NCBI GenBank assembly: GCA_964613215.1
Contig: CAZTHK010000005.1
Location: forward strand, 7,958-71,957
Source: an uncultured bacterium
GTDB lineage: Bacteria > Krumholzibacteriota > Krumholzibacteriia > Krumholzibacteriales > CAZTHK01
Length of the DNA stretch: 64,000 nt
Direction: 5' to 3'
In this document: positions 2,154-9,474 of the stretch, piece by piece
How positions within the stretch are numbered: position 1 is the first letter of the stretch
Layout: each line of letters begins with the position of its first letter
Position numbers and translations under genes: made by a program
The notes under the pieces: generated by a model
The model's input: only the letters and a program-made list of their open reading frames with translations
Databases searched by the model: none
Told to the model about the DNA's origin: nothing

Positions 2154-4928
2154 GTGGGTTACGTTCCACTACATGTTCATACCATACATAGCGCCGGAGG
2201 CAGCATCATTACTCCGGCTGAACTGGTATCCAGGGCTGCCTTTCTGAAGATGCCAGCGGTAGCCGTTACTGATAACTGGTCTCTTTACGGGCATTACCAG
2301 TTTGCCAGATTGGCCCTGAATGAGGGTGTTAAACCTCTATTTGGAGCGGTCATACGCACCGGTTCACTGCTGGGAAGGGAAGGGGTGTACCGTTTGACCC
2401 TGCTGGCCGAAAATGACACTGGTTACAGGCACCTGGTCAGACTGGTGAATTCACATTATCTGAATGGTGAAGAGGATATAGTAGAGGTTGGGGATCTGAT
2501 AGAAAACAGAAGTGGCCTGATAGTCCTTTCAGGTGGATTGGATGGAGAAGCTTCTGATGCAGCGGCGGGCGATAACCTGGAAAAGGCGAATGAAGTACTG
2601 AAGAAAATGTTGCAGATATTCGGGGAGGGGAATGTCTTCATGGAATTAACCGATCATGGCCTGAAAAGGGAGGGTTCGGTTAATAAGGCTATGGCCGGAA
2701 TTTCCCGTAAACTTGGTATCCCGTTGGTGGCTGTTAACCAGGACAGATATATTCTCAAGGAGGATGAAAAGTATTTCAGAGCCCTCCGGCGAATCAGGAG
2801 GGAAGAGGACAGGGAGGGGAATATTGATAATATGGAGGAATACTATCTGAAGAGCGAAAGCGAGATGGAGCCGTATTTCTATACTCTGGAAGGAGCTCTG
2901 GAGAACTCCGGCTTGATTTCGGAGCGGTGCAATGTGGATATCCTGAAATCAGGGGTGATTGATTTTTACAGGGCCCCATCTCCGGGTGAGAAGCTGGAGA
3001 AGATGGCTCACCGGAGGTTTTTATTAAAGTATCATCAGATTTCAGCAAAGGCGAAAGACACTCTGGAGAAGCGTCTCCGGGATGAACTGGACATGATCAA
3101 GCGGCAGAAAGTAAGCGGATTTCTGTTGTTTTTGAGGAAACTGATAGAGGATTCGGCAAGGAGGGGGGTATGGATGGAGATTATGGGAGGAAGTGTACAG
3201 GAGAGTTTCATTGCATACCTGATAGGTATTATTCCGCTCAATCCGGTGGAGCATAACCTGATTCTCGAGTCACTGGCAGGCAGCGGGGAGGGGGTCCCCG
3301 GGCCGGTGGATATGTACAGCTCCCAGAGCGACAGGGAGAAGGTGCTGGAGACCATAAGGCAGTTGCTTCCCGGTTATTATACCTACTTTCAGATGGAACT
3401 GAGAAGAAGGTCCTTTCAAACCGTGGTAAAGGAATTGACGGAAGCTTCAAGTATCGACCATTCAGTCAGGAAGAAATTGCTCTCACTGGTATCGGGTTTG
3501 GAGGAGGGAACCAGTCTGACCGGAATACTGGAGGATTCCAGGCCCCTTTTGAATCTTTACAGGGATAATGAGATGGTCCGCAGAGTGATGGATGCTGCTG
3601 ACAAGCTGCGGGGAAGGCTGGTGAGTCTGGTTATGAATTCTTCAAGGTGTGTGATACTTCCCCGGAGAATGGAAGAGTATTTTTCCGTGATAAAGGGTGG
3701 CACTAATGAACGATTTATTATGATGGATAACCGGACCCTGGAGGAAACAGGGGGTATTTCCATATCCCTGCAGCATTCCCATTTCGTTGCAGCTCTGCTT
3801 CAGGTAGTGGAATCCCACCGGGGGAGGGAGGACAGGGAGATTAAATTGTGGCAGGCTGATGCCATGGATGGGCGTGACTGGGGATATCACAAAATCGGTA
3901 ATCCCAGAACTATGAAGTTGATAGCAGAAGGGGATACTACCGGGGTTTATCTGCTGGAGAGCAGGGGGATAAGAGAATTACTGGTGAAGATAAGGCCATC
4001 TGACTTCGATCAGTTGATCAATGTTGTATCCCTTTATCGCCCGGCTCCGCTGAAGGGAAATTTATGGCAGCGCTATATTAAGAATGGGGAAGAAAATGTC
4101 GAAGTTCAGTTACCTCACAGCTCCCTCTCAGCTCCACTCAAGGAAACCAGAGGCATACTTCTATTCAGGGAGCAGGTCAGGAGTATCCTGCAGAGATCAG
4201 CCGGATTAAGTGGAGATCAGATGATTCGGGTGGAAAATGCCCTGGAGAGCCGTGACTCGGGCAAGCTCTCAACAGCCAGGCTGATGTTTATCAGGGGAGC
4301 AATGGAAAACAGTATGGATGAGCAGGATGCTCAGAAAATATTCGATTATCTTCTTCACAATATGAAATTCACTCATCATAAAAGCAGGGTCTGCTTCCAT
4401 GCTTTTCTGAGCTACAGGACTGCATATCTCAAGGCTTACTACTTCGAGGAATATTTTCAGGCCCTGCTTAACTGTAACAGGAATGTCCGTGACAGGTTGA
4501 AAGGTTATCTGGATTATCTGGAAAGTTCAGGAATTACTATCCTGCCGCTTGATATTAACAGAAGCTCCAACAGCTACAGGTTTGAGGAGGGCGGGCTGAG
4601 GCCGCCCCTTCCCCATTCCAGAAGTCTCAATGAACAGGAGGCAATACATATAGTGGAGGAGCGTCGCCGGGGCGGTGAATTTGAGACGTTCGATCAGTTA
4701 ATCGAAAGGGTGCCGGATAAAGTTTCATACCGGGCTATACTCTACCTGATAGAGCAGGGAGCCATGAATTCTTTGGAGGGTGATCCTGAAATGATGAGGC
4801 GGAAATGCGAGAGGATGGCCATCCGGCAGAGAAGGATGACCGGTGATGAGCCTGTAGAGAGTGAAGCCACCGGGGAGGCGCAGAAGAATGATAAGCAACT
4901 TGATATGTTTGATCAGCAGGAAGAATAA
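2154..4928 (+). CDS. DNA polymerase III alpha (DnaE)-like protein, apparently catalytically degenerate, lacking C-terminal OB/tau domains
   Basis: PHP start YVPLHVHT, LTLLAENDTGY, GDTTGVYLLES, SLYRPAPL, YRTAYLKAYY, LPLDINRS match DnaE architecture; PDIDxD and KxDxLG motifs degenerate; ends KQLDMF. GTG start with GGAGG upstream. Confidence 0.85.
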   Translation: MGYVPLHVHTIHSAGGSIITPAELVSRAAFLKMPAVAVTDNWSLYGHYQFARLALNEGVKPLFGAVIRTGSLLGREGVYRLTLLAENDTGYRHLVRLVNSHYLNGEEDIVEVGDLIENRSGLIVLSGGLDGEASDAAAGDNLEKANEVLKKMLQIFGEGNVFMELTDHGLKREGSVNKAMAGISRKLGIPLVAVNQDRYILKEDEKYFRALRRIRREEDREGNIDNMEEYYLKSESEMEPYFYTLEGALENSGLISERCNVDILKSGVIDFYRAPSPGEKLEKMAHRRFLLKYHQISAKAKDTLEKRLRDELDMIKRQKVSGFLLFLRKLIEDSARRGVWMEIMGGSVQESFIAYLIGIIPLNPVEHNLILESLAGSGEGVPGPVDMYSSQSDREKVLETIRQLLPGYYTYFQMELRRRSFQTVVKELTEASSIDHSVRKKLLSLVSGLEEGTSLTGILEDSRPLLNLYRDNEMVRRVMDAADKLRGRLVSLVMNSSRCVILPRRMEEYFSVIKGGTNERFIMMDNRTLEETGGISISLQHSHFVAALLQVVESHRGREDREIKLWQADAMDGRDWGYHKIGNPRTMKLIAEGDTTGVYLLESRGIRELLVKIRPSDFDQLINVVSLYRPAPLKGNLWQRYIKNGEENVEVQLPHSSLSAPLKETRGILLFREQVRSILQRSAGLSGDQMIRVENALESRDSGKLSTARLMFIRGAMENSMDEQDAQKIFDYLLHNMKFTHHKSRVCFHAFLSYRTAYLKAYYFEEYFQALLNCNRNVRDRLKGYLDYLESSGITILPLDINRSSNSYRFEEGGLRPPLPHSRSLNEQEAIHIVEERRRGGEFETFDQLIERVPDKVSYRAILYLIEQGAMNSLEGDPEMMRRKCERMAIRQRRMTGDEPVESEATGEAQKNDKQLDMFDQQEE

Positions 4929-4948
4929 CAGCAGATGAAGTTTTACTA

Positions 4949-4977
4949 TTGACTTTAGGATTTCTTATTGCTACATT
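4949..4977 (+). promoter_or_regulatory. Sigma70-type promoter of tRNA-Glu
   Basis: TTGACT-17 nt-TACATT about 30 nt upstream of the tRNA. Confidence 0.65.
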
Positions 4978-5007
4978 GACATCCGTTTATATTATTGATC
5001 AGCAGGC

Positions 5008-5082
5008 GTCCCCATCGTCTAGTCAGGATCAGGACACCGCCCTTTCACGGCGGCAACACGGGTTCGAATCCCGTTGGGGACG
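5008..5082 (+). tRNA. tRNA-Glu (TTC), CCA not encoded
   Basis: GTCCCCA/TGGGGAC acceptor stem, anticodon arm CCGCC-CT-TTC-AC-GGCGG, T-arm GGTTCGAATCC. Confidence 0.97.
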
Positions 5083-5318
5083 CTCTTTATATATTATCTG
5101 ACCGGCATATATCTAATATTAAATCCCGGAGAGTTAAAAGGCTGGTTCCAGCCCTGAAACTGATTCTGAATCAACTTGCACCGGAATCAGGCAGATGGAA
5201 AAAATTAAGGAAGCTCCGGACAGTGACAGTTATTGACAGCTCTATTCTGAATTTCTATAATCCGTCTCACGGAAGAGTAAAACGAAACAGCAATATCAAA
5301 GCATAAGGGGCCGGTAGG

Positions 5319-6230
5319 ATGAGACTTGCCACCATCAAAGTAGATAAGGGCGAGAGGGCTGCTGTTGTTACATCCCGGGGCGCGGTAACGGTCGAAAGGA
5401 TTAACCATGTCTTCAAGCTAGATTTTCCCCTCCATCTGCTGAATCTCCTTGAATCCGGCAGGTTGGATGAGATGAGAAGGTGGTTTGAAGAAGAGGGCGG
5501 GGAAAAAATAAACTCCCTGAAGCCGGGAAAGGATTTAATTCCCGGGAGGAAAGTAGTCTACTCTCCCTTGTACCGGGAACCGGTAAAGATCTGGGGAATA
5601 GGATTGAATTACACCGAACATGCCGGAGACCTGTCGGAGAGAACCCCCCGGTCCATACCCGCCAGCTTTATAAAGGCAAGTACCACCATCATCGGAGCGG
5701 GAGATAAAATCAGGTTGCCTGTTCAGTCTGAAAAAACAACCGGCGAGGCCGAACTGGGTATTGTTTTCAAGAAGGAGTGCAGGGGGGTGGGTGAGGATAA
5801 CTGGATGGATGTGGTGGCTGGATTCACCAATATTATTGATATGACCGCTGAAGATATTCTCAGAAGAAATCCCCGCTATCTGACCCTGTCCAAGAATTTC
5901 GATACCTTCTTCAGCTTCGGACCCCATCTGGTGACTCCGGATGAAATCAGGGATGTTTTAACAATTAATGTTGCCACAGTAATCAACGGGAAGATTCATG
6001 CCCGCAACAGCGTTTCAAATATGATCTTTCCACCTCCCTTTCTGGTATCATTCCACTGTGGAGCTATGACCATGCATCCGGGGGATATAATATCCACCGG
6101 AACACCCCGGGCGGTCGAGCTCAGTGACGGAGATGAGATAGAGTGCCGGATAGACGGACTGGAGCCCCTGGTCAACGGGGTGATCGATCAAAAGAAGTTG
6201 AAGCAGGAAGGCGATAGGATATGGACTTGA
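5319..6230 (+). CDS. Fumarylacetoacetate hydrolase family protein
   Basis: KIWGIGLNYTEHA, EAELGIV, SKNFDTF, PGDIISTGTP motifs. Confidence 0.93.
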   Translation: MRLATIKVDKGERAAVVTSRGAVTVERINHVFKLDFPLHLLNLLESGRLDEMRRWFEEEGGEKINSLKPGKDLIPGRKVVYSPLYREPVKIWGIGLNYTEHAGDLSERTPRSIPASFIKASTTIIGAGDKIRLPVQSEKTTGEAELGIVFKKECRGVGEDNWMDVVAGFTNIIDMTAEDILRRNPRYLTLSKNFDTFFSFGPHLVTPDEIRDVLTINVATVINGKIHARNSVSNMIFPPPFLVSFHCGAMTMHPGDIISTGTPRAVELSDGDEIECRIDGLEPLVNGVIDQKKLKQEGDRIWT

Positions 6231-7012
6231 AGCTGAAGGGTAAGATAATCGTGGTTACCGGTGCCAGCAGGGGTATGGGTATGGCAAGTGCCGGAGTGCT
6301 TTGCGAAGAGGGGGCCAGGGTAGTAATTTCGTCCCGGAGTGATAAGAACCTGAAACCGGCAGCAGCCCGGATAGAAGCAGAAACCGGTAATAAACCGGCT
6401 GTCTTTGCGGCGGATATCTCCAGGCTGGATGATATCCTCTCTCTGAAGGAATGGATTCTGGATGAATTCTCCACCGTTCACGGAATATTGATCAACGCGG
6501 GGGGACCTCCCACAGGTCCTTCCACCTCTCACAATGAGGGGGAGTGGGATAGTGCTATTAAAACCAACCTGATGTCAGTGATCAGGATAACCAGGGAATT
6601 TGTACCGGTGATGAAGAAACAGAAATTCGGTCGGATAGTTGCAATAACTTCCTCATCGGCGAAACAGCCCCTGGACAATCTGGTGCTATCCAATACCACC
6701 AGGGCGGGGGTACACGGATATCTGAAAACCCTGGCAAATGAAGTGGGTAAGGACGATATCCTTGTTAATGCTCTCATGCCGGGACCGACAAATACTGAGC
6801 GTCTTCAGAATATCCTGAAGAACCGGGCTGATAAGGAGGGTATTCCCCTGGAAGAGGTGATAGCCGGAAGAACCGCCCGTATTCCTGTGGGGAGATTCGG
6901 CGAACCTGAGGAGCTGGGGACCCTTGCCGCTTTTCTGCTCTCCGGAAGGAACACCTACCTTACCGGCCAGTCCATCGCGGTGGACGGAGGATATCTGAAA
7001 GCGGTACTATAG
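6221..7012 (+). CDS. SDR family oxidoreductase
   Basis: TGASRGMG, NAGGPP, LVLSNTTRAG, IPVGRFGEPEE, YLTGQSIAVDGG; overlaps the FAH gene by 10 nt. Confidence 0.93.
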   Translation: MDLKLKGKIIVVTGASRGMGMASAGVLCEEGARVVISSRSDKNLKPAAARIEAETGNKPAVFAADISRLDDILSLKEWILDEFSTVHGILINAGGPPTGPSTSHNEGEWDSAIKTNLMSVIRITREFVPVMKKQKFGRIVAITSSSAKQPLDNLVLSNTTRAGVHGYLKTLANEVGKDDILVNALMPGPTNTERLQNILKNRADKEGIPLEEVIAGRTARIPVGRFGEPEELGTLAAFLLSGRNTYLTGQSIAVDGGYLKAVL

Positions 7013-7032
7013 GCTGCAGGTTTCATGAAGCA

Positions 7033-7230
7033 TTACGGACACTCATAACCGGGAGCCTGGGAGGTTCCGTCGTTCACGGTCTGTTCTTCCATGGTGAACT
7101 CCTTGTCCGATATTATCATAAGCTTATAGGTGCCTGATGAACCGCAACTGTTACCCCAGTGCCTGGTAATTGCAAAACGGTAGGTACCGGCATCGGTAAT
7201 GGAGAAATCGGGTATCCACTGAATTTTCAT
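7033..7230 (-). CDS. Small orphan ORF or C-terminal gene remnant (65 aa)
   Basis: Protein-like beta-strand pattern (GTYRFAI...GTYKLMI) with two Cys; fills the intergenic gap; no strong SD. Confidence 0.35.
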   Translation of the reverse strand: MKIQWIPDFSITDAGTYRFAITRHWGNSCGSSGTYKLMIISDKEFTMEEQTVNDGTSQAPGYECP

Positions 7231-7380
7231 TATTCGCTTTCCGTTTTCTTGGTTCTATTACCTGAATTGCATTGAAATAAAATTGATTTGCCTATATAGT
7301 ATATTTCCACTGGATGCCCCCTTCGAGCATTCAGCGGAGGATAACTGTTGATAGAGCTTAATTCTGGAGAGGGAGCATTT

Positions 7381-9474
7381 ATGAATAAACTGATCTGTTC
7401 TCTGGTAACGGTATTGATAATGTTCTGTTTTATCACGGAAGGTATTCAAGGAATGAGTGCCAGAAAGGAAGGGCTCTCCTGGATGAAGGAATCTAAAGGT
7501 AAGCTGAAGTCGGAATTGATCTCCCGGTACGGTGAACAACAGCAGGAGAGGATCGAGAGGGGGCTTGAGCAGGTAGCTCAGTTCTGGCGTGAGGAGGATG
7601 GGGGAGCGGATGAATTCGAGCAGTTTGTGCTGAAAAACTTCGCAGGTGATGATAAAACCCTGGATATGATTTTCCAGCGCTTTGAGAGGATCCTGGAAAA
7701 GATAAACGGGCATATGAACGAGATTACCCTGGAACTCAGGAAACAGGCTGACCTCGATCTGGGGCCCATGGTGCCAATGGACAGAATATGCTCAGGATAC
7801 AACCCTTCCGCACATGTGAAGGAAGATTTCTTTAAAAATAAATTGGCCTTTGTGGTACTGCTCAACTTTCCCCTTACCCTCCTGGAGGAGCGGCTTGACG
7901 AAGGATCCGGCTGGAACAGGAGAAGGTGGGCGGAGGCCCGCCTGGCTCAATCCTTCTCCAAGAGGATTCCCTCGGAGGTAAGGATGGAATTCGCCAGAGC
8001 GGCTGCCCTGGCGGACAACTATATCGCCGGGTACAATATCTGGATGCATCACCTTATTAATGAAAAAGGGGAGAGACTGTTTCCCGCCGGAATGCGGCTG
8101 CTTTCCCACTGGAACCTGAGGGATGAGATTAAGGCGGATTACGGGGACGGGGAAAAGGGGCTGGCCAAGCAGAGGATGATACAGAAGGTCATGGAGAGGA
8201 TTGTTACCCAGACCATTCCGGAGGTGGTGATCGATAATCCCCATGTGGACTGGAATCCATTCTCAAATGAAGTGTACCCCTCCCGGGTGGATGATTCGGA
8301 AAAACCTGCACCTGAAAATATGAAAGTAACCAGCAGCCCGGAACCTGATACCAGGTACAGGATTCTTATGGAGACTTTCAGGGCGGCCAGGATGATAGAT
8401 CCATATTCTCCCACCACTCCCACCCATATAGACAGAAGATTCCAGGAGGACCGTGAGATTCCGGAGAAGCAGGTGAGGAGGATACTCGAACAGGTGGTTT
8501 CTTCACCACTGGTTTCGGAGGTTGCCGGTATAATAGAATCCAGACTGGGGCGCCCTCTGGAACCCTTCGATATCTGGTACAATGGATTCCGGGTCAAAAG
8601 CAGGTATTCAGAAGCTGAACTGGACCGGATAGTACCCCGTAAATATCCCACTGCAGATGACTTTGAAGAAGATATTCCGGCATTCCTGAGGAAACTGAAA
8701 TTCCAGCCCGAGAAGGCTGACTGGCTGGCCGGTATGATATCGGTGGAACCGGCCAGAGGCTCGGGCCATGCCTGGGGAGGTGAAATGAAGGGAGCCGAGG
8801 CCCGTCTGCGTACCCGGGTGGGTGAGGGTGGAATGGATTATAAGGGATTCAATATAGCGGTACATGAGATGGGCCACAATGTGGAACAGGTTATATCCAT
8901 GAACGATATTGACCACACCCTGCTCAATGGTGTTCCCAATACTGCTTTTACCGAAGCATTCGCCTTCATCTTTCAGGAGAACGACCTGATGCTTCTGGGA
9001 TTGGAGGGAGAGGAGAGCGCCAAATCCGATGCCATCAGAACCATCAATGATTTCTGGATGACTTACGAGATCGCAGGCGTTTCGCTGGTTGATATGGAGG
9101 TGTGGCACTGGATGTACCGTCATCCCGACGCTACACCCGCCCAGCTGAAGAGGGCGGTACTGGAAATATCCAGGGATATATGGAATAAATACTACGCCTC
9201 CGTTCTGGGCGGCGAGGATGAGATTCTGCTGGGGATATACTCTCATATGATTCATTCGTTCCTCTATCTCCCCGATTATCCGCTGGGACATCTGATTGCT
9301 TTCCAGATTAAGAAGTACATAGAGGAAGAGGGCGAAATCGGAGATGAGGTGGTAAGGATGGCCGGTCTGGGCAGGATCGCCCCTGATCTGTGGATGAAGA
9401 AGGCAACTGGTTCCAGGGTAAGCGCAAAGCCGCTTCTCCGGGCTGCCGGGAAAGCACTTGAAGTGATCAGGTAA
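7381..9474 (+). CDS. Exported gluzincin-type (M3/M32-like) zinc metallopeptidase of unassigned family
   Basis: Signal peptide from ATG 7381 (GGAG SD); HEMGH plus downstream TEAFAF third-ligand Glu; DYPLGHLIAFQ tail. Confidence 0.65.
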   Translation: MNKLICSLVTVLIMFCFITEGIQGMSARKEGLSWMKESKGKLKSELISRYGEQQQERIERGLEQVAQFWREEDGGADEFEQFVLKNFAGDDKTLDMIFQRFERILEKINGHMNEITLELRKQADLDLGPMVPMDRICSGYNPSAHVKEDFFKNKLAFVVLLNFPLTLLEERLDEGSGWNRRRWAEARLAQSFSKRIPSEVRMEFARAAALADNYIAGYNIWMHHLINEKGERLFPAGMRLLSHWNLRDEIKADYGDGEKGLAKQRMIQKVMERIVTQTIPEVVIDNPHVDWNPFSNEVYPSRVDDSEKPAPENMKVTSSPEPDTRYRILMETFRAARMIDPYSPTTPTHIDRRFQEDREIPEKQVRRILEQVVSSPLVSEVAGIIESRLGRPLEPFDIWYNGFRVKSRYSEAELDRIVPRKYPTADDFEEDIPAFLRKLKFQPEKADWLAGMISVEPARGSGHAWGGEMKGAEARLRTRVGEGGMDYKGFNIAVHEMGHNVEQVISMNDIDHTLLNGVPNTAFTEAFAFIFQENDLMLLGLEGEESAKSDAIRTINDFWMTYEIAGVSLVDMEVWHWMYRHPDATPAQLKRAVLEISRDIWNKYYASVLGGEDEILLGIYSHMIHSFLYLPDYPLGHLIAFQIKKYIEEEGEIGDEVVRMAGLGRIAPDLWMKKATGSRVSAKPLLRAAGKALEVIR

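Follow-up and report, generated by a model that had tools for sequence, protein, structure and literature searches.

Dead polymerase modules are known outside the C-family, in other fold families and with other partners, as in the C-terminal half of eukaryotic Pol epsilon and the inactivated archaeal PolB. For the C-family itself, a 2026 survey of more than 3000 complete genomes distinguishes four groups and, in the part of its text cited here, describes inactive members for the Y, X, A and B families only and makes no mention of Krumholzibacteriota (PMC12926913). The survey of Timinskas et al. dropped sequences without an intact active site (PMC3919608; this source and the others cited below are likewise quoted from part of their text). 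No inactive C-family group is described in the literature searched, of which the supplementary files were not covered and could hold exceptions. Here we describe a gene from a 64,000-nucleotide stretch of an uncultured Krumholzibacteriota genome (contig CAZTHK010000005.1 of assembly GCA_964613215.1; the whole stretch is referred to as the window) that encodes a DnaE paralogue without the canonical polymerase site, hereafter the dead DnaE, and which looks like the first polymerase-turned-accessory protein in the C-family. The evidence is computational and comes from uncultured genomes.

The nearest relative of the dead DnaE by sequence is DnaE1, and its nearest functional analogue is ImuB. It resembles DnaE1 (Taq 2hpi/3e0d, E. 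coli 2hnh) in domain order, in fold, in the place of the clamp motif after the helix-hairpin-helix (HhH) domain and in the YRP and EQ motifs of the fingers; DnaE1 differs in having the catalytic Asp triad, the motif-C Lys, the GRGS Arg, the HAAG His, an OB and a tau-binding domain, and the first HhH hairpin. ImuB, like the dead DnaE, is homologous to polymerases, lacks the catalytic residues, has a beta-clamp motif and stands beside active polymerases, but it has the Y fold rather than the C fold and is encoded with dnaE2 and damage-induced, whereas the dead dnaE is unlinked to such a cassette. DnaE2 (ImuC) is described as a non-essential extra DnaE in genomes otherwise having only DnaE1, with a degenerate PHP site (PMC12926913), in which it is like the dead DnaE; it differs in that its catalytic aspartates are kept, it belongs to a lexA-PolY cassette and it falls outside the clade of the dead DnaE. 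The short DnaE3 variants of Thermotogae and Tenericutes also lack the OB and C-terminal domains (PMC3919608), but they are described there as active and essential, with intact sites. PolX proteins with a dead polymerase site and an active PHP nuclease (PMC12926913) also keep a polymerase fold for a non-synthetic role; they differ in belonging to another fold family and in having an active PHP domain, which in the dead DnaE is degenerate.

The initial annotation of the window had read the gene as a C-family pseudo-polymerase, and sequence, comparative and modelling evidence now supports that reading. The probable role, in our assessment, is that of a clamp-tethered, non-catalytic DnaE acting as a clamp-occupying accessory factor beside intact DnaE1. 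Judged by its residues and domains, the dead DnaE lacks the features that define an active C-family polymerase, a DnaE1 or a DnaE2.

The polymerase site and fold of the dead DnaE

The gene is a single unbroken frame of 924 codons at 2154-4928 on the forward strand, and its product is a DnaE homologue whose Pfam domains, all above their cut-offs, are PHP (residues 6-168), DNA_pol3_alpha (281-532), finger (582-719) and HHH_6 (793-876). It is intact and colinear with Pol III alpha, as had been annotated. A Pfam scan of the 924-aa protein gave no match to the OB fold (PF01336), and the stop codon lies five residues past a terminal QLDMF motif, in agreement with the earlier statement that OB and tau-binding domains are absent. 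All NCBIfam DnaE models match the protein below cut-off (NF004226 at 433.6 bits vs 1002; TIGR00594 at 418.2 vs 434.35). Members of the family are named 'DNA polymerase III subunit alpha' in their sources, a name that over-counts active polymerases. The gene and its domains are as follows.

2154-4928, + strand: gene for a DnaE paralogue of 924 aa, predicted to be catalytically inactive; GTG start, stop codon at 4926-4928, from orthologue alignment
2169-2657, + strand: PHP domain with a degenerate metal site; in this copy the H-x-H pair (residues 7 and 9) is the sole remainder of nine consensus ligands
2994-3749, + strand: Pol3 palm/thumb with lost catalytic and deoxynucleotide-binding motifs (MGGS at 3183-3194, GPVDMYS at 3300-3320, NSSRCV at 3636-3653)
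3750-3773, + strand: GGISISLQ in place of GLLK-x-D-FLG, with the Lys and the third catalytic Asp gone
3897-4310, + strand: fingers domain, better conserved in the family than any other part, with GVYLLES, SLYRPAP and EQ invariant
4530-4781, + strand: HhH/beta-binding domain, first hairpin without G-h-G, more acidic than in DnaE1

Catalytic residues are numbered here as in E. coli alpha (D401, D403 and D555). An HMMER alignment to Thermus aquaticus alpha (3e0d/2hpi) places a Pro at the first motif-A Asp, an Asp at the second and a Ser at the motif-C Asp, and a MAFFT alignment with the DnaE1 and DnaE2 of the same genome and seven other DnaE1 proteins puts the same residues at the catalytic positions. 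The loss of one motif-A Asp and of the third Asp, as first reported, is therefore confirmed (D401 to P, D555 to S), and sequence and profile alignments alike place one acidic residue in the palm site rather than three, the D403 position alone being acidic. All three aspartates are reported to be absolutely conserved in active C-family polymerases (PMC3919608). The motifs affected are MGGS (residues 344-347), GPVDMYS (383-389), NSSRCV (495-500) and GGISISLQ (533-540); the motif-C Lys, the GRGS Arg and the HAAG His are also gone in this copy. The readings and coordinates given for these motifs in the initial annotation, and for those of the PHP domain and the tail discussed below, proved exact.

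To these we added 42 orthologous loci taken from GTDB species genomes. Nine of the loci are masked with N, frame-broken or cut by contig ends and were excluded from the residue counts, which cover the window's own copy and the other 33 loci.

D401 position: acidic in 0/34 members
D403 position: acidic in 34/34 (E in 27, D in 7)
D405 position: acidic in 0/34
K553: kept in 1/34
D555 position: acidic in 0/34
GRGS Arg: kept in 0/34
HAAG His: kept in 0/34

The same losses are thus shared by orthologues throughout the order, and the pattern recurs in seven further full-length representatives from a library of 1.84 billion sequences. DNA polymerisation by the canonical mechanism should no longer be possible for the family, and residual catalysis of any kind is probably absent as well.

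The PHP exonuclease site has been defined as the nine residues HHDHEH[C/H]DH, any deviation from which is scored as inactive (PMC12926913); by that measure the residues of the dead DnaE mark its proofreading site as inactive. In this copy the PHP motifs read HVH (residues 7-9), TDN (39-41) and NQDRY (195-199), so that the metal ligands are eroded down to HVH just as annotated. Most members keep H, H, E, H and C, and have N-D-R instead of D-x-H at the last two ligands (R in 33/34); the His of TDH is kept in 16/34.

The annotation had also held that the finger and HhH motifs are retained. For the fingers this stands: among the 34 members the YRP Arg is kept in all, and GVYLLES, SLYRP-x-P and EQ are invariant, while in more divergent members YRP becomes YKP and ES becomes EG. 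The HhH domain is present as well, but RPPLPHSRSL stands here where the first hairpin of DnaE1 has FGLxAVKNVG. An AlphaFold2 (AF2) model of the protein has a predicted local distance difference test score (pLDDT) of 82.5 and a predicted template modelling score (pTM) of 0.77, and is confident but for four short stretches, one of which is residues 897-924. Foldseek aligns it to the Taq, E. coli and M. tuberculosis alpha structures with TMq 0.75-0.80. In the model the whole DnaE fold (PHP-palm-thumb-fingers-HhH) is retained, and by domain architecture and fold the protein is a C-family homologue.

The dead DnaE is not the sole DnaE of its genome (3.41 Mb, 50 contigs, 93.8% complete); a sole dnaE had been named in the initial annotation as a finding that would refute its reading. 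The genome has three PF07733 genes, encoding the dead copy, a DnaE1 on contig C7 and a DnaE2 on contig C15. The DnaE1 is intact: it has 1141 aa, PDIDIDF, GRGS, HAAG and KIDILGL, 9/9 PHP ligands and an internal clamp motif, QTIMMF. The dead copy is about 26% identical to it and, besides not being the sole DnaE, differs from a DnaE1 in its missing OB and tau domains and its low model scores. The DnaE2 keeps PDLDIDF and KIDIIGQ.

The C-terminal tail and the sliding clamp

Sliding-clamp-binding peptides follow a consensus of the Q-L-[SD]-L-F type. The dead DnaE ends at the place of the internal clamp motif of DnaE1, just past the HhH domain, with two further features.

4842-4925, + strand: C-terminal tail (residues 897-924), predicted to be disordered, pLDDT <50
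4896-4910, + strand: QLDMF beta-clamp-binding motif (residues 915-919), followed by DQQEE and the stop codon, five residues from the C-terminus

The tail is flexible, basic and then acidic, and bears a motif close to the consensus, Q-L/I-S-L/F-F; QLDMF, a pentapeptide in a flexible region, has the form expected of beta-clamp binders. A motif Q-[LIMTF]-[SGP]-[LFI]-[FLM] lies 1-23 residues from the C-terminus in 37/42 loci, with Q in 37, L/I in 32, S in 35, L/F in 35 and F in 35 at the successive positions. Of the five loci without it, one is masked with N, two run off the ends of their contigs and two are frame-broken. The clamp motif is the most conserved feature of the tail and is found in 8/8 newly found members that reach the C-terminus.

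We predicted the complex of residues 860-924 with the DnaN of the same genome (368 aa, its gene adjoining dnaA) in three runs, with three controls. The docking score was 0.69 (0.70, 0.69 and 0.68 in the individual runs) vs 0.00 for the best control; a score of 0.69 is reached by 58/80 solved complexes and 2/110 mismatched pairs. The runs share at least 46% of their contacts, and the pLDDT of the tail partner is 46-47. The confident contacts join tail residues 910, 912 and 914-919 to clamp residues 150, 170-175, 240-245, 275-278, 316-318, 342-344 and 361-366, a surface that we take to comprise the domain II-III cleft and the C-terminal strand. The terminal clamp motif noted in the initial annotation is thus kept across the family and, in silico, docks in the DnaN cleft. 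Because many clamp-peptide complexes have already been solved, the docking result may reflect likeness to them and is no proof of binding.

The DnaE1 proteins of the order in which the dead paralogue occurs have six-residue clamp motifs (QTIMMF, QTFLGF, QGFLGF, QTRLGL and QTIFIF; DnaE1 loci of the class are L050-L069). One neighbouring family likewise has a six-residue motif (QITFAF and similar), and most other families have the five-residue QxSLF. In this order the clamp motif of the dead paralogue is nearer to the consensus than that of DnaE1.

From the conserved motif and the docking we infer that the protein binds the clamp in vivo, and from this its cellular role. The tail would enter the hydrophobic cleft of the beta sliding clamp and thereby tether a bulky, polymerase-shaped, non-catalytic body to clamps on DNA. 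The body would occupy the clamp as a competitor or gatekeeper for its polymerase-binding sites or, alternatively, could serve as a scaffold to which other proteins bind through the well-conserved surfaces of its PHP domain and fingers. In either case it would work alongside intact DnaE1 and not instead of it. If this holds, the idea taken from ImuB of a dead polymerase as a clamp-bound organiser would extend to the replicative family, the protein would be a natural tool for asking which non-catalytic parts of alpha matter, and clamp competition in a little-known uncultured phylum would have an extra player.

The main job of a non-catalytic DnaE could instead be done away from the clamp, as a structural partner (of DnaE1, an exonuclease or SSB, for example) through the PHP and fingers surfaces. 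Such a role would be like that of E. coli alpha, whose degenerate PHP domain serves to hold epsilon. Mean pairwise identities in five genomes having both genes (0.41 overall among dead copies vs 0.63 among DnaE1) point in the same direction, with constraint lost most in the palm/thumb and least in the PHP domain and fingers.

Palm/thumb: mean identity 0.33 in the dead DnaE vs 0.70 in DnaE1
PHP: 0.45 vs 0.64
Fingers: 0.49 vs 0.70

In addition, at 25 columns the residue fixed in the family is not the one fixed in DnaE1, examples being an invariant Glu for the first Gly of GPGRGS and a Glu for the conserved Arg of the RRAMGKK stretch, and this suggests new constrained surfaces. The tail motif of the 37 loci, its Q invariant and its F nearly so, would be hard to explain without clamp binding, however, and no partner gene is conserved alongside, so that we consider a purely structural role unlikely.

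The genome also allows for a role as an ImuB-like clamp adaptor for its own DnaE2, in the manner of a split mutasome. A cassette on contig C15 (L051) has lexA at 1862-2512, a Y-family gene at 2851-4044 and dnaE2 at 4023-7382; no imuA was seen in the C15 stretch examined. By eye no Q-x-x-L-F motif is seen in this DnaE2, and ImuB is a known case of a dead polymerase recruiting DnaE2 to the clamp (PMC10421592, PMC11791113). The Y-family protein of the cassette, however, has N-T-D-D for the expected D-x-D, with the first Asp degenerate, and a QMKLF of its own near the C-terminus; it is probably an ImuB-like inactive clamp adaptor, to judge from these motifs. The dead dnaE is not linked to the cassette, and no operator shared with it was seen upstream of lexA. 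Of the 51 other genomes of the order, just 32 yielded a DnaE2 orthologue (at least 57% identity), and with this query none was found in several high-quality genomes that carry the dead DnaE (among them G077, 97% complete in 2 contigs; G042, 96%; G055, 96%). Because such near-complete genomes have the dead DnaE and no DnaE2 that we could find, we hold the adaptor role to be very improbable. The dead DnaE is itself no DnaE2/ImuC: it has neither a linked imuB or other Y-family gene nor an intact site. Two IMS genes are present in the genome, on contigs C1 and C15, and there is no IMS domain in the dead DnaE. The gene content of its flanks agrees with the earlier observation that imuA and imuB are absent beside it.

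Retention of the gene and observations against a clamp-occupying role

A search of 5.8 billion proteins returned 16 full-length relatives and one partial relative at 37-47% identity and 455-864 bits, after which scores drop to 365 bits for an ordinary DnaE1 of 1140 aa. A profile search of 1.84 billion representatives gave 11 clusters at 704-1380 bits, the next match being at most 569 bits. We then surveyed 208 genomes of the class: the window's own and 51 others of its order, and 156 from families f4-f9. A dead-type gene (E <= 1e-117, 34-47% identity) is present in 48 of the 51 others of the order, with a partial match in G030 (61% complete) and none found in G045 (71% complete) or G048 (81% complete). 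None of the 156 genomes of f4-f9 has a dead-type orthologue; the best match in them is ordinary DnaE1 at 24-29% identity.

The family is under purifying selection. The ratio of nonsynonymous to synonymous substitution rates (dN/dS), calculated by the Nei-Gojobori method (NG86), is 0.06-0.23 for 13 pairs at 73-97% protein identity, pairs that are not independent, as some share genomes; a ratio near 1, proposed in the initial annotation as the sign of a decaying gene, was not seen. That the gene is a pseudogene still open by chance is hardly credible. This copy does have the most degenerate PHP domain, having lost the E, H and C that most members keep, and it sits on a long terminal branch (0.95-0.99). 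The branch, however, is matched by a long one for the DnaE1 of the same genome (0.37 vs 0.18-0.28 for others), this genome being the sole member of its family-level group, and the frame is open over 924 codons. For the family as a whole, the order-wide retention and the dN/dS values effectively refute decay.

Several observations weigh against the dead DnaE being a clamp-bound, non-catalytic body on DNA. Some concern the body's hold on DNA. The G-h-G signature of the first hairpin is missing in 34/34 members, the net charge of the HhH domain is -6.8 vs -0.1 in DnaE1, and several basic positions with at least 95% conservation in DnaE1 carry other residues, R699 (to E) and K704 among them. With the hairpin degraded, the domain acidic and these residues exchanged, DNA binding by the dead DnaE appears doubtful, and less certain than the initial annotation assumed. 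The DnaE1 of the same order keeps an internal clamp motif of its own, so that an adaptor role of the dead paralogue for DnaE1 would be unneeded and is unlikely.

Other such observations concern the locus. Comparing clusters of open reading frames across the 42 loci, with flanks of up to 8 kb, we found no conserved replication or repair neighbour; the commonest neighbour, a divergent GAF-SpoIIE phosphatase gene at 24 loci, is absent from the window and points to no pathway. Frames are broken in 2/42 loci, L015 having its tail out of frame and L044 breaking after about 576 codons, which could be assembly error or real decay. No RNA run is listed with the stretch; the four DNA runs, all from one study and possibly the source of the assembly, are uninformative on expression.

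The palm provides the last of these points. The acidic residue at the D403 position is invariant as a class (34/34), and new acidic residues have appeared near the old nucleotide loop, E342 in 34/34 and a D or E at the S364 position in 25/34. Together with a Ser-His pair at residues 542-543, they could form a re-modelled metal site capable of cryptic catalysis. The protein would then still be an enzyme, whether polymerase, nucleotidyltransferase or nuclease, working through the E/D of the D403 position, E342 and a Q-H-S-H motif. The S and H replace the L and K of DnaE1 in 32 and 30 of 34 members, respectively, and the retained YRP Arg of the fingers also fits an enzyme. Set against this are the absolute conservation of all three aspartates reported for the active C-family (PMC3919608), the loss of the Arg and Ser of the triphosphate loop and of the motif-C Lys, the weak constraint on the palm, which is the least constrained region, and the divergent members in which even YRP and ES are altered. 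On balance we regard a surviving enzyme as improbable and continue to favour a non-catalytic, clamp-occupying protein.

Origin and surroundings of the gene

In a tree of 49 rows the dead family forms one clade (support 100), whose stem measures 2.75 changes per column. The family lies outside the clade of the order's own DnaE1 (support 100), in a poorly resolved part of the DnaE1 radiation, and apart from the one DnaE2 in the tree. An old duplication and a transfer would both fit these trees.

A second degenerate DnaE paralogue (P0157, 1005 aa; about 960-1020 aa among members) was found beside a normal DnaE1 in 5/7 genomes of family f4, at L072 (G004:C1:173637-176651) and L073-L076 (G006, G001, G003 and G002). 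In it D555 is a His in 5/5 and D401 is E, G or A. It has kept the HhH hairpin but neither HAAG nor the PHP H-x-H pair. OB and C-terminal domains are absent, and a C-terminal motif, PRLW[VI]VG[RQ]IRS, is conserved among its members.

This second paralogue joins the dead family in quick trees (Shimodaira-Hasegawa-like approximate likelihood-ratio test, SH-aLRT, 97), and an approximately unbiased (AU) test against placing it with the DnaE1 of the class gave p = 0.0067, for groups that were named after the tree was seen and that have long stems. We tentatively take the second paralogue as sister to the dead family, with a common origin. A wider reading, to which we give slightly less than even weight, is that the C-family has true pseudo-polymerases as the Y and B families do: an old extra DnaE in Krumholzibacteriia would have lost its catalytic function together with its OB fold and tau link, and would since have been kept, through a divergence worth hundreds of millions of substitutions, to regulate polymerase traffic while tethered to the clamp. 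It would survive in two forms, one order-wide and strongly degenerate and the other less degenerate and in another family, possibly from one duplication.

Other origins were considered and set aside. PADLOC gave 0 hits for a defence system, and PHROG 405, a phage DnaE-type profile, scores the protein about the same as cellular DnaE models do.

Two features precede the coding sequence.

2118-2132, + strand: upstream word TATAAGCGTTTAGAT, a 4-mismatch copy of the conserved element TACAAAYGTTTAGTA
2142-2146, + strand: GGAGG ribosome-binding site, 7 nt ahead of the GTG start at 2154, read directly from the sequence

The choice of start fits the N-termini of the orthologues (M-x-Y-V/I-P-L-H-V-H), the window's own protein beginning M-G-Y-V-P-L-H-V-H. 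The near-palindromic TACAAAYGTTTAGTA sits between sigma-70-like -35 and -10 boxes, about 48-85 nt ahead of the start codon, and may be an operator or part of the promoter. It occurs at no more than 3 mismatches in 13/39 loci, all of one subclade (L006, L007, L008, L012, L016, L021, L023, L025, L027, L028, L029, L043 and L045); other subclades have different conserved upstream words. Elsewhere in the window's own genome the element has no copy with up to 2 mismatches, and the 15 matches at 3 mismatches are patternless and reveal no regulon. No palindrome common to the upstream regions of lexA and the dead dnaE, as SOS regulation might give, was found.

The neighbours of the gene in the window are an LPG_synthase_TM protein, a rhomboid, a tRNA-Glu (5008-5083), an FAA hydrolase and an SDR. 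The phosphatase gene common at other loci (GAF plus SpoIIE, PP2C-type) lies directly upstream on the opposite strand in 24/42 (e.g. L025:5014-6417). An ion channel and an HATPase_c_2 anti-sigma-type kinase, the latter nearby in some loci, are also among the commonest neighbours, and neither is in the window. Downstream in the window, at 7348-9474 on the forward strand, is a gene for a 708-aa protein without a Pfam match, relatives of which are found near the dead dnaE in 9 loci.

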